This document shows positions 59,608-63,186 of a DNA stretch of 64,000 nucleotides, one piece after another (position 1 is the first letter of the stretch; every line of letters starts with the position of its first letter). The stretch comes from an uncultured Candidatus Saccharibacteria bacterium (GTDB lineage: Bacteria; Patescibacteriota; Minisyncoccia; Phycocordibacterales; UBA9973). The position numbers were made by a program, and so were the translations under genes. Location: contig CAZYIA010000002.1 in assembly GCA_964646765.1 (NCBI GenBank), positions 12,760-76,759 on the forward strand. Direction: 5' to 3'. Under the pieces are notes generated by a model. It did not search any database, was not told where the DNA came from, and saw only the letters and a list, made by a program, of their open reading frames with translations.

Positions 59608-59650
59608 AGGCGACTTCCTGATTTTTAGGAAGCCGCCTCGTTTTATTTTT
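59608..59650. terminator. Terminator hairpin (ggcgacttcctgatttttaggaagccgcc + T-run)
   Basis: 11-bp stem with one mismatch, followed by cgttttatttt. Confidence 0.6.
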
Positions 59651-60398
59651 AGTTAGAGTTCCAAAGCATTTCGAATAAGCTTTTGTGCATTTCAATCATC
59701 GAACGGTTTTCTATAACCAAAGCAACGAGCGGTTGCTTTAACTGAAACATCACCAATTTGTATGGTGTGACGACAAGATCAACGTGAATATCAGAATTTT
59801 TCGGCAATAGTCTGATTTCCTCATTAAAGTTTTTTTGAGTCGCGAGGCGTTTTTGGGCGGTAGGGGAATCAGTGAAAACAAGTTTTGTTTGAACCCGCAT
59901 ATCCGCACGTCGCTCGACGTGCTTTTTTATAAAAAATTCTTCGTCTAATGTCTGCCACTCGGCGATGTTTGAAATGGCGTAATAAAAGTCATGCGGCTTT
60001 AAATCAGCGAGGAGTTCGTCGTAAATATTTTCAATTGCTTTAAGTCCCTCATAGTACTTAATAGAGCTTTCAGTGCCACGAAGATTGTATAAGCTTTCAA
60101 GTTCGGGGATTGCCCGCAGTAAAATAGCACGCTTGGCATCAAGTGTATTTTCAAGACGTTCAGGATGCTCAGCAACAAAGAGCGTTTTAAATCCGCGGAT
60201 CTCTTTTTTCATCAAGCCTTTCTGGATGAGCGAGTTTACAATCTCATATACCGTTGTTCGCTTCACATCTGTCTGCTTTGCGATCTTTAAAACCGTAGTC
60301 GCTCCAAGCGAAAGGGTAGCAAGATACACTTTTGCTTCGTTTTCATCGAGCCCAAATTGGGTTAGGGAATCTAGTAATTTATCATTCTGGATAGCCAT
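59649..60398 (-). CDS. TrmB-like transcriptional regulator (paralog 3 of 3)
   Basis: N-terminal HTH LDENEAKVYLATLSLGATTVLKIAKQTDVKRTTVYEIVNSLIQKGLM. Confidence 0.6.
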   Translation of the reverse strand: MAIQNDKLLDSLTQFGLDENEAKVYLATLSLGATTVLKIAKQTDVKRTTVYEIVNSLIQKGLMKKEIRGFKTLFVAEHPERLENTLDAKRAILLRAIPELESLYNLRGTESSIKYYEGLKAIENIYDELLADLKPHDFYYAISNIAEWQTLDEEFFIKKHVERRADMRVQTKLVFTDSPTAQKRLATQKNFNEEIRLLPKNSDIHVDLVVTPYKLVMFQLKQPLVALVIENRSMIEMHKSLFEMLWNSN

Positions 60399-60405
60399 TT
60401 TGTAG

Positions 60406-60430
60406 AAATGTCGATATTTTCGACAACATA
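60406..60430. promoter_or_regulatory. Operator-like palindrome TGTCGA-N5-TCGACA, containing the shared motif ATGTTGTCGAAAA on the minus strand
   Basis: aaatgtcgatattttcgacaacata. The same 13-mer occurs at 48371-48384. Confidence 0.55.
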
Positions 60431-60455
60431 AATATATTACAGAATAAGTAGTTTA

Positions 60456-60479
60456 TCGTCAATTTTGTATATTTGACGA
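60456..60479. promoter_or_regulatory. Second palindrome TCGTCAA-N10-TTGACGA in the same intergenic region
   Basis: 7-bp perfect inverted repeat. Confidence 0.45.
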
Positions 60480-60549
60480 CATTTGTGACATAGGTCAAAT
60501 TTCGTTGGATAATTTGATCACATTCTTTAATACAAAAAAATAAGAAATC

Positions 60550-61041
60550 ATGAACGAACTAAAACAAACCCAACTTTTTACTTTTCTAATGTTCTTAGAT
60601 CTCGAAAATTTCCCATTAGTTATTCATCTCCCTTCTTCTGAGAAAGTTTCTTTTCTGGAAGTAATAAATGGAGTGAAACCACGCGTTGAAACTGATTTTA
60701 TGGATGAAATTAACGCAGATCGAATTATGTCTCGAGGAGAGCGTGCTGCCATATGCATAGACCTTCTAACCCCTAGTAAGGAGGAATATTTCCGGATTAA
60801 ATACACAATCTTCAGTGGAGATTATGTAGAAGTTGATTGGGAAAGTAATTGGTCTAATTGCCGGAGTATCTTTAGGAGATTTACTGGTTTCTACTCGTCT
60901 TTCTGGGTCCCCCTTGCTGAGGTTCCAGTATTTATCAGGACTAATCTTAAAACCGCTAAGAACCTTAAAGAGGAAATGGGAAGAGGGTTTTACTCTCAAC
61001 GAATTGATCTTATTGAAGAAGTATTAGACGTTGACGATTAG
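60550..61041 (+). CDS. Hypothetical protein (163 aa), the first gene downstream of TrmB-like paralog 3
   Basis: ORF only. Confidence 0.4.
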   Translation: MNELKQTQLFTFLMFLDLENFPLVIHLPSSEKVSFLEVINGVKPRVETDFMDEINADRIMSRGERAAICIDLLTPSKEEYFRIKYTIFSGDYVEVDWESNWSNCRSIFRRFTGFYSSFWVPLAEVPVFIRTNLKTAKNLKEEMGRGFYSQRIDLIEEVLDVDD

Positions 61042-61092
61042 TTAAAGTTAATCATTCAACGATAAGATTTTCTTAAAACTAAAACTAATTCT

Positions 61093-61275
61093 ATGAGAAA
61101 AATTTATTTATTTTTATGGTGGTTTGTTCTAATTGGAGCAAGTATCCACATAATTTTTTTACTAAAAGGAGGAATTTCTAATGTAGTTGATGGAATCATT
61201 ACTATTACATTTGTGACCCTTTTTGTAATTAATTTATTTTTAAAAAGGAAGCTTAACAAAAAAGAGGGGCAATAA
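61093..61275 (+). CDS. Small hydrophobic membrane protein (60 aa)
   Basis: Two predicted TM helices. Weak call. Confidence 0.3.
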   Translation: MRKIYLFLWWFVLIGASIHIIFLLKGGISNVVDGIITITFVTLFVINLFLKRKLNKKEGQ

Positions 61276-61458
61276 CATTGCCCTCACTCTTTAGCTCATA
61301 TTTTGTCGAATGTGGGTTAATTGTGAGAAATCTTATGGTCATCATTCTTATTTTCCTCGGTGTGTTTTTCCTGGTTGGCTTCATGTCCATGGGCCATAGG
61401 GATAGTCACATTAATAAGTACGACTTGCACTAATGTGTGCAATACTTGAGTTATCTCT

Positions 61459-63186
61459 ATGCAAAAAAATTGTCAGAAGTGTGGGAATACTTTTCCTATC
61501 GATGAAGCAGATAAAAGTTTTTACCAAATGGTGGCCGTCCCGGAGCCAACATTTTGCCCAGACTGCCGAATGCAACGTCGCATGACGTTTCGAAATGATC
61601 GAACGCTCTATAAACGTTCGTGTGAACTTTGTACAAAAGAAGTCATTTCGATTTACCGTCCCGATGGACCACAAAAAATTGTTTGTCAAAAATGTTGGTG
61701 GAGCGATGATTTCGATGCAACTAAATATGGCCGCGACTACGATTTTTCGAAACCATTCTTTGAGCAGTATCGAGAATTAATGAACGACGTGCCGTTCGTG
61801 GCTAACTTCGTAGTTGATGAGTCGCGAATGATCAATAGTCCATATAACAATATGGTGCTCGATCTTCGAAATTGCTACCTACTTTCGAACGCTGATTTTA
61901 ACGAAGATTGTTCGTATGGCTGCGAAGTTGAAAAGTGTCGCACTTGTGTAGATAACAACCTCATTCACCAATCAGAAATGTGTTATGAATGTGTGAATGT
62001 GCAAAACTGTTACCGCGCGTTCTACTCAGTTGATTGCGAAAGCTCGTCAGATATTTGGTTTTGTCGTGACTGTAACGGTTGCACCGATTGTTTTGGCTGC
62101 GTGAATCTTCGTAAACAAAGTTACTACATTTTTAACGAACCATACGGCACAAAAGAAGCATATCAGGCAAAACTCGCTGAACTTGGTTTGGATTCTCGCG
62201 CTCACTTAGATGAGATTAAAAAACAAGTTGCCGAATTTTGGATGCAGGCCGGTATTCAAAAAAATCTTCATGAAAAACAAACTGAAGGAGTTTCTGGCGA
62301 CTACATCTACAACTCACGGAATGTCACTGATAGCTGGATTGTGCATGAAGGGTGGAACGTGCGTTACAGCCAGTACTTAATTACAGCGAGTACCAAAGAT
62401 AGTTACGACTTTACTCAATATGGTGATGGTGCTGAACTACACTATGAAATAGTACAAGGTGGTGGAGGAGGGTCGCGTGTGCGCTTTTCATGGTTTGTGC
62501 CAAATGAGAATCGCGACATGGATTACTGTATGCAGGTTTTTACGAGTCACGACATGTTTGGTTGTATTGGTCTTCGCAAAAAGGAATACTGTATTTTAAA
62601 CAAGCAGTATACGAAAGAAGAATACGAGAAGTTGCGTGAGGCGATTGTGAAGCAGATGGCCGAAATACCGTACGTAGATTCTTTAGGTCTTGAATATCGC
62701 TATGGCGAATTTTTCCCAAGTGAAATTTCTCCGTTTGCCTATAATGAAACCAGTGCTCAAGAAATTTTTCCGCTCACTCGCGATACCGTGCAGGCAAAAG
62801 GTTTCACGTGGGCAGAACGTGAGGCGCGAAACTATAAACCCACGATGGCCCAAGATCAAATTCCCGACACAATTTCCGAGGTGGGTGAAGGAATTACCAA
62901 AGAGGTTATTGAGTGTGCCAATAGTGGCGATGAAACAAAAAATTGTGCCACAGCTTTTCGGGTGATCCCTGATGAAGTTTCGTTCTACCAACGGTTTAAT
63001 TTACCTCTCCCAGCTAAGTGTCCAAACTGCCGCCACGCGGAGCGAATGCAGTTTCGTAACCCACCAATATTCCGAAAGGGGACCTGTGCTGAATTAGGCT
63101 GCGGTAAGGAATTCCTCACCGGCTATGGCCAAGAGTACGAAGGAAAGCTCTTCTGTAAGGAACACTACCTCCAAAAAGTTTCATAG
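61459..63186 (+). CDS. Cysteine-rich repeat protein of unknown function (paralog B of 48458-50239)
   Basis: Collinear with paralog A. N-terminus CQKCGNTFPIDEADKSFYQMVAVPEPTFCPDCRMQRRMTFRNDRTLYKR. Internal blocks DCNGCTDCFGCVNLRKQSYYIFNEPY / GCIGLRKKEYCILNKQYTKEEYE. C-terminus CATAFRVIPDEVSFYQRFNLPLPAKCPNCR. Confidence 0.6.
   Translation: MQKNCQKCGNTFPIDEADKSFYQMVAVPEPTFCPDCRMQRRMTFRNDRTLYKRSCELCTKEVISIYRPDGPQKIVCQKCWWSDDFDATKYGRDYDFSKPFFEQYRELMNDVPFVANFVVDESRMINSPYNNMVLDLRNCYLLSNADFNEDCSYGCEVEKCRTCVDNNLIHQSEMCYECVNVQNCYRAFYSVDCESSSDIWFCRDCNGCTDCFGCVNLRKQSYYIFNEPYGTKEAYQAKLAELGLDSRAHLDEIKKQVAEFWMQAGIQKNLHEKQTEGVSGDYIYNSRNVTDSWIVHEGWNVRYSQYLITASTKDSYDFTQYGDGAELHYEIVQGGGGGSRVRFSWFVPNENRDMDYCMQVFTSHDMFGCIGLRKKEYCILNKQYTKEEYEKLREAIVKQMAEIPYVDSLGLEYRYGEFFPSEISPFAYNETSAQEIFPLTRDTVQAKGFTWAEREARNYKPTMAQDQIPDTISEVGEGITKEVIECANSGDETKNCATAFRVIPDEVSFYQRFNLPLPAKCPNCRHAERMQFRNPPIFRKGTCAELGCGKEFLTGYGQEYEGKLFCKEHYLQKVS

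Follow-up and report, generated by a model that had tools for sequence, protein, structure and literature searches.

A divergent TrmB-like regulator and cysteine-rich protein gene module with a candidate operator and a conserved RNA-like hairpin in a Patescibacteria genome

Introduction

In bacterial divergons governed by MarR- or LysR-type proteins, the regulator gene is divergent from its target and the intergenic operators overlap the promoters, while in phage T7 the RNase III sites consist of two stems parted by an internal loop. To our knowledge, hardly any transcription factor, operator or regulatory RNA has been characterised in bacteria of the candidate phyla radiation (CPR). Archaeal TrmB proteins recognise DNA through a tyrosine at about position 50; the TGM site of TrmBL1 is TATCAC-N5-GTGATA (6-N5-6), autoregulation has been reported for TrmBL1, and TrmBL2 (264 aa) is without the sugar-binding residues (PMC4158304). 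Here, we describe module B, which occupies positions 59649-63186 of a 64,000-nt stretch of DNA (the window) from an uncultured Candidatus Saccharibacteria bacterium (assembly GCA_964646765.1, contig CAZYIA010000002.1). In this module the gene of a TrmB-family regulator (TrmB_B) is divergent from a predicted operon that includes the gene of a cysteine-rich (Cys-rich) protein (CysB). We propose that module B is probably a divergent regulator/target unit, in which TrmB_B would repress its own gene through one site (O1) and control the operon through another (O2), and in which a hairpin element (P0/R1) would serve as a processing or stability signal.

Results

Module B consists of the minus-strand regulator gene, a 151-nt intergenic region and the plus-strand open reading frames (ORFs) ORF163, ORF60, ORF32 and CysB. 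An earlier note on this DNA had described the module with two intergenic palindromes, and its genes and both palindromes are present where that note placed them; ORF32, P0/R1 and the multigene-family nature of the Cys-rich target were absent from it. Homologs that carry organism names come from Nomurabacteria, Paceibacterota or Patescibacteria.

TrmB_B (59649-60398, minus strand, 249 aa) matches PF01978 (TrmB) with an E-value of 2e-15 (56.7 bits against a cutoff of 25.6). The same Pfam family is above cutoff in TrmB_A (E 6e-12), the regulator of a sister module A, and in a third TrmB-like protein of the window; beyond this helix-turn-helix (HTH) domain, Pfam and NCBIfam searches found nothing in the regulators, including no PF11495 sugar-binding effector domain. 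The AlphaFold2 (AF2) model of TrmB_B (predicted local distance difference test, pLDDT, 88) gave full-length Foldseek matches to TrmBL2 (5box, E 1.7e-13, the best) and TrmB (3qph, E 2.6e-10). As modelled, TrmB_B is a TrmB-family regulator of TrmBL2-like architecture, with a winged HTH, a long dimerisation helix and a C-terminal alpha/beta domain. It has 184 homologs of about 248-250 aa, all those with a named source organism being from Patescibacteria, and in the recognition helix of this family R47, T48 and Y51 are invariant. In locus L059 (4361-5539), an ATP-binding cassette (ABC) transporter ATPase directly upstream of an ortholog of CysA, the Cys-rich protein of module A, is fused to a domain like the C-terminal domain of the TrmB-like proteins (hidden Markov model E 1e-5), which hints that this domain senses a ligand.

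The putative TrmB_B operator, O1 (60409-60429), lies between the predicted -10 element and the start codon of TrmB_B and consists of TGTCGA-N5-TCGACA (60409-60425) followed by ACAT. It is kept as TGTCGR-N5-YCGACAACAT in 11 B-type loci in all (among them L001, L002, L003, L004, L008, L084, L089, L090, L100 and, as a variant, L010), where the regulators are as low as 43-46% identical, and in L002 the arms have changed symmetrically to TGTCGG...CCGACA. Across 792 kb of related loci, O1 occurs solely beside TrmB_B orthologs. The first palindrome of the earlier note is thus present beyond chance, is kept across orthologous loci and behaves like an operator.

Module A (47582-50239) contains TrmB_A (47582-48355, minus strand, 257 aa), a 102-nt intergenic region and CysA (48458-50239, plus strand, 593 aa), a paralog of CysB with its own predicted promoter (48421-48448). 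Its A-type operator, TGTCGAAAACTTGTCAACA (48375-48393), has a 6-N7-6 geometry and overlaps the -35 element and spacer of the predicted TrmB_A promoter (48391-48362, minus strand; 11 of 12 consensus matches; 6 nt from the ATG). It is found as TGTYGRAAAnnTGYCAACA in six loci in all (including L006, L051, L085, L098 and L101), and its two occurrences in the 792 kb are each beside a TrmB_A ortholog. The site holds most of a 13-mer, ATGTTGTCGAAAA, of which the window has exactly two copies, at 48371-48383 (plus strand) and 60417-60429 (minus strand), one in each TrmB/Cys-rich intergenic region, as had been noted before. The longest string common to the two regions measures 14 nt, a length matched in 5 of 3000 shuffles, and among 1233 other segments of 102 nt taken from the window, none has a string longer than 11 nt in common with region B. 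The common string is therefore non-random; apart from it, the two intergenic regions differ. Since sites of both types occur only beside TrmB genes, O1 and the A-type site are most likely autoregulatory operators, and the placement of the A-type site over the TrmB_A -35 and spacer and of O1 between the TrmB_B -10 and ATG likewise points first to autoregulation.

The second candidate site, the O2 box TGACGACATTTGTGACA (60474-60490, plus strand), carries a CGACA half-site abutting the -35 element (GTGACA) of the predicted operon promoter (60485-60513, plus strand; GTGACA-N17-GATAAT, 10 of 12 consensus matches). It is present as TGWCGACAwwTrTGACAG in all 13 B-type loci examined and is the sole exact match in the window; an operon -10 element, [GC]ATAAT, follows the conserved O2/-35 block at 17-nt spacing in 7 of 7 aligned orthologs. 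The other palindrome of the earlier note, TCGTCAA-N10-TTGACGA (60456-60479), exceeds chance only in part: its exact pattern is expected 0.3 times per window, and its arms coincide with two back-to-back -35-like hexamers. Its right arm stands, as part of the strongly conserved O2 box, but its left arm, which is the -35 element of the predicted TrmB_B promoter (60434-60462, minus strand; TTGACG-N17-TAATAT, 9 of 12 consensus matches), is not conserved, and the palindrome as such is unsupported.

That left arm raises the question of whether the motifs are promoter architecture (divergent -35 elements, -10 elements and initial transcribed sequences), with TrmB_B regulating elsewhere or acting globally like TrmBL2. 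The coincidence of the left arm with a -35 element, its lack of conservation, the TTGACG hexamer that the right arm forms on the plus strand and the best structural match to TrmBL2 would all fit. We nevertheless consider this explanation unlikely, because O1 is a true palindrome outside the -35 and -10 hexamers with both arms conserved, including the symmetric change in L002, because it is confined to TrmB neighbourhoods, and because the A and B sites have a half-site in common although their proteins are only 21% identical.

Several points weigh against local control of the operon by TrmB_B. All of the promoters are consensus predictions, and TrmBL2, the closest structural relative, is a rather non-specific chromatin protein with broad DNA binding (PMC4158304). 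None of about 165 other Cys-rich genes in the 792 kb has an O1- or A-type site upstream; O1-type sites are tied to the TrmB gene and not to Cys-rich genes generally, and may mediate autoregulation only. More distant TrmB_B homologs neighbour unrelated uncharacterised genes, and the TrmB_B family therefore seems to be a general family of local regulators in these bacteria. In L112 (1868-6747), three consecutive TrmB-like genes are each divergent from an unannotated gene of 126-277 aa; here the regulator family itself has expanded into serial divergons.

The P0/R1 element lies between ORF60 and ORF32. P0 (61267-61283, plus strand) is a terminator-like hairpin of variable sequence that overlaps the stop codon of ORF60, with a U-rich tract behind it. 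R1 (61281-61334, plus strand) is a conserved hairpin of about 54 nt with a 5-bp lower stem (CUCAY/RUGAG), a 3x2 internal loop, a 12-bp upper stem, a UGUCG loop and a GAGAUAAU-like tail; its covariance-model score is 71 bits. Thirty instances were analysed: 7 related genome loci matched the covariance model, 21 more instances (at least 49 bits) came from metagenomes by a pattern scan, and L097 has a weaker second match (36 bits). In their alignment 95% of the cells are paired and seven pairs show compensatory changes, which none of 500 shuffles equalled, and an independent alignment gave the same fold (RNAalifold). In the stems, G·U cells number 82 and A·C cells 15; conservation is high in the lower stem and the internal loop, and the upper stem is variable. 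R1 has a fold z-score of -4.2, and a P0-type hairpin of unrelated sequence abuts R1 in 29 of the 30 instances. Against Rfam 15, positions 61281-61334 gave no match at E-values up to 10, and neither in the window nor in 10 loci did any family reach its gathering score.

A TrmB-like gene (A-, B-, third or other type) is located upstream on the opposite strand in 24 of the 30 instances. A Cys-rich gene begins no more than 26 nt from R1 in about 14 of them and, with one or two ORFs in between, further on in about eight more. In most cases the distance from the end of R1 to the start of a Cys-rich gene is 6-20 nt; the other instances stand before the gene of an NMT1-type ABC binding protein, of CutA1 or of a small peptide. 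The idea that R1 generally precedes Cys-rich genes was rejected, since among 80 genome loci it was found only in TrmB-linked ones, and it is missing from five loci fetched for distant TrmB_B homologs. In L008 (4806-4860), the R1 slot holds a candidate type III hammerhead ribozyme, 15 nt before a small-peptide ORF, with an intact CUGAUGA...GAAAC core, intact stems I and II and a short stem III (E 1.7e-6), and a P0-like hairpin is kept there when the sequence is read by eye.

Our analysis makes R1 most likely an intercistronic processing or stability signal, because of its shape of two stems and an internal loop, its position between cistrons, the hammerhead candidate in the L008 slot and a tail that doubles as a -10-like element in a mostly leaderless organism. 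The last point rests on gene starts in the window, which have almost no Shine-Dalgarno motifs and, before most ATGs, TGnTAnAAT-like -10 elements at 6-12 nt; this suggests that mRNAs are predominantly leaderless. Other observations tell against the proposed unit. The hammerhead candidate scores 37.8 bits, below the Rfam gathering score of 48.5. R1 is absent from module A, which makes it dispensable for the TrmB/Cys-rich pairing. The R1 loop, TTGTCG, resembles a -35 element 18 nt upstream of the tail GTGAGATAAT, and with loop and tail both promoter-like, part of the R1 conservation could be at the DNA level.

R1 would then be a DNA element, an internal promoter (TTGTCG as -35-like element, TGaGATAAT as extended -10) with a protein-bound flanking inverted repeat. 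In L001, L104 and L107 the proximal promoter has a -10 region with exactly the sequence of the R1 tail, so that in a leaderless context R1 may overlap an internal promoter; the tail stands 6-20 nt before the ATG like other -10 elements of this genome, and the loop TGTCG is an operator half-site. We hold this to be possible but less likely, as the stems show a G·U excess and CG to UG to UA transitions, with conserved G·U pairs that would not match in a palindrome of DNA, and as the slot retains an adjoining hairpin of unrelated sequence in 29 of 30 instances and, in L008, a ribozyme candidate. The DNA and RNA readings of R1 are not mutually exclusive. Less probable still is a ligand- or protein-binding leader controlling the next gene, either a riboswitch or an autoregulatory site for the zinc-ribbon protein. 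The conserved lower stem and internal loop under a variable upper stem, the variety of the genes whose start codons R1 immediately precedes (Cys-rich, NMT1-type ABC binding protein, CutA1, small peptides) and the basic zinc ribbons at the CysB termini would suit such a leader; against it, R1 showed no alternative-pairing structure (expression platform), the genes after it have no Shine-Dalgarno sequence to sequester, and it has no Rfam relative.

CysB (61459-63186, plus strand) is a protein of 575 aa with 32 Cys. Its AF2 model (pLDDT 88; predicted template-modelling score, pTM, 0.86) places four C4-type zinc-ribbon/treble-clef sites, two N-terminal and two C-terminal, around a beta-solenoid, the ribbons at both termini being basic. 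About 24 Cys positions are conserved, namely those of the four terminal sites and of a central group that includes a CxxCxxCxxC run. Pfam and NCBIfam gave no match to CysB above threshold, a PDB sequence search gave none, and Foldseek found no PDB or BFVD fold match at E < 0.01. Its weak Foldseek matches are left-handed beta-helix proteins and phage zinc ribbons, and its core showed no significant similarity to those of LpxA or gamma-carbonic anhydrase (best E 0.17, TM < 0.1, no hexapeptide-repeat Pfam match). We would guess that CysB is an intracellular Zn- or Fe-S-binding protein.

The Cys-rich family comprises 5116 clusters at 50% identity and is found in Patescibacteria. Its only recognised pieces are the 'probable treble clef' domains zf_Tbcl (PF13451; residues ~4-41) and zf_Tbcl_2 (PF23477; ~51-83), which make up less than 15% of the protein and for which CysB itself scores sub-threshold; unlike this N-terminal part, the beta-solenoid core and C-terminal half of CysB belong to no known family. 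A 62-aa stand-alone ORF right after R1 in L001 (3104-3292) is equivalent to the N-terminal zinc ribbon of the family. In other Paceibacteria, up to six Cys-rich paralogs with 30-50% identity follow one another on the same strand as tandem arrays (L023, L040, L060, L011 and others), six copies filling the entire 11.7 kb of L023, and several genomes have more than one Cys-rich locus. TrmB/Cys-rich adjacency is not a family-wide rule, as it was seen in only about 10 of 80 loci, most of the others being tandem arrays without TrmB. Literature searches yielded nothing relevant on zf_Tbcl, Patescibacteria TrmB, cysteine-rich CPR families or Parcubacteria hammerheads.

As to how the window came to hold two such modules, a recent segmental duplication or an assembly artefact is ruled out by identities of 44% for CysA/CysB (E 1e-172) and 21% for TrmB_A/TrmB_B, so the earlier note was right to see two diverged regulator-plus-target modules. 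Its further claim, that the whole arrangement was duplicated, is not supported, and from the sequences duplication of one complete module does not appear demonstrable. Among 175 sampled family members, CysA and CysB lie about as far apart (0.57) as the median distance in the sample (0.61), and each of the two has many closer relatives that lack a TrmB neighbour. TrmB_B is nearer to the third TrmB-like protein (30% identity) than to TrmB_A. Within the window, no Cys-rich gene is paired with the gene of this third protein (55459-56223, plus strand), but orthologs of that gene in L051 and L106 adjoin Cys-rich genes, with R1 present in L106, and at least four TrmB lineages are paired with Cys-rich genes in other loci. 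The non-sister relationship of CysA and CysB, the closeness of TrmB_B to the third protein and these several paired lineages therefore indicate that the pairing is old or recurrent and did not arise in one duplication. Co-divergence after duplication of a complete ancestral TrmB/Cys-rich pair is accordingly rather doubtful: the common layout of modules A and B, their related operators with a common half-site and the presence of R1, in other genomes, alongside TrmB lineages of the A, B and third types speak for it, and, beside the relationships just given, the CysA orthologs of L015, L056 and L059, which have no TrmB neighbour, speak against it.

The front of the operon is variable. ORF163 (60550-61041, plus strand, 163 aa) is a lineage-specific orphan that found only itself among 5.8 billion proteins, with no homolog in any fetched locus and no Pfam match above threshold; it is probably coding (its codon score is 0.16, and no other frame exceeds -0.47), and other loci hold different cargo at its position. 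ORF60 (61093-61275, plus strand, 60 aa) has two hydrophobic segments, a weakly positive codon score and no Pfam match above threshold, with small hydrophobic ORFs as positional analogs in L003 and L004. ORF32 (61335-61433, plus strand, 32 aa; MVIILIFLGVFFLVGFMSMGHRDSHINKYDLH) encodes a small hydrophobic membrane peptide with a His-containing tail ending in ...DLH. At this length the codon score is uninformative; peptides with the pattern ...H..P.D[LF]H stop occupy the corresponding position in L003, L008 and L092 and were the only matches among 5048 small ORFs. In the B-type loci L010 (1909-4597), L089 and L100, the regulator is separated from the Cys-rich gene by an ABC transporter that has an NMT1/THI5-like binding protein and is preceded by R1, and in L084 a CutA1 gene takes the place of the transporter.

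Two further features lie near the modules. A 142-aa ORF (50254-50682) with its own -10-like element starts 14 nt after CysA, and a 40%-identical homolog adjoins the third-type TrmB gene in L051. A PaaX-like gene (63320-63952, minus strand; real start probably ATG 63805) is flanked by a 46-nt direct repeat (63258-63303 and 63803-63848, 93% identical), each copy of which has imperfect inverted arms, TATATACATTTC and GGAATGTATATA, that are complementary at 10 of 12 positions, the outer 10 nt perfectly. The repeat may be an operator or a mobile-element end.

Discussion

In the unit that we propose, a TrmB_B dimer would bind O1 just downstream of its own promoter and repress its own gene, and would also bind the CGACA-containing O2 abutting the operon -35 element, with operator occupancy set by a ligand sensed by its C-terminal domain. 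The GTGACA-N17-GATAAT promoter would drive an operon of variable front cargo (here ORF163 and ORF60), P0/R1, ORF32 and CysB, in which the elements that stay constant would be small membrane peptides, P0/R1 and a protein of the Cys-rich family. P0/R1 would act on the sense-strand RNA, where the front cargo gives way to the ORF32/CysB part. Module A, of ancient divergence, would work by the same logic through a related 6-N7-6 operator. A bolder proposal is that TrmB-like regulator, P0/R1 and Cys-rich protein form a Patescibacteria-specific system, with R1 a new class of cis-acting RNA (a processing signal interchangeable with a hammerhead, or a riboswitch or ribozyme) that controls members of a very large family of multi-zinc-ribbon beta-solenoid proteins amplified in tandem; we regard this as speculative and on present evidence improbable. 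The His-tailed micro-peptide, CutA1 and the 32 Cys are thin hints of a link to metal handling.

The regulatory logic of module B is ordinary, and the interest of the locus is in its uncharacterised target family, its candidate operator and the undescribed R1. The module offers a TrmB-type regulator with a clean candidate operator, a compact conserved RNA-like motif absent from Rfam and, in CysB, an entry to one of the larger uncharacterised protein families of Patescibacteria. Identifying the ligand of the regulator, or what the Cys-rich protein does, would annotate thousands of genes.

Like TrmB, TrmBL1 and TrmBL2 of Thermococcales, TrmB_B has the PF01978 winged HTH and the recognition-helix tyrosine, and its fold matches over the full length; it differs in its bacterial (Patescibacteria) host, in the lack of a detected PF11495 and in targets that are not sugar genes. 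O1 has the same 6-N5-6 geometry as the TrmBL1 site but another sequence, TGTCGA/TCGACA. TrmB_B, with about 250 aa, resembles TrmBL2 in length, but TrmBL2 binds DNA broadly, whereas the module B sites are specific and local. As in MarR- and LysR-type divergons, regulator and target are divergent with operators in the shared intergenic region, but the regulator family is a different one and module B has in addition a conserved RNA-like element and variable cargo. The shape of R1 resembles the RNase III sites of phage T7, and, like T7-type RNase III hairpins and intercistronic hammerheads, R1 lies between cistrons, with a type III hammerhead candidate in its slot in L008; by sequence and by Rfam, however, it is related to no ribozyme or known motif.

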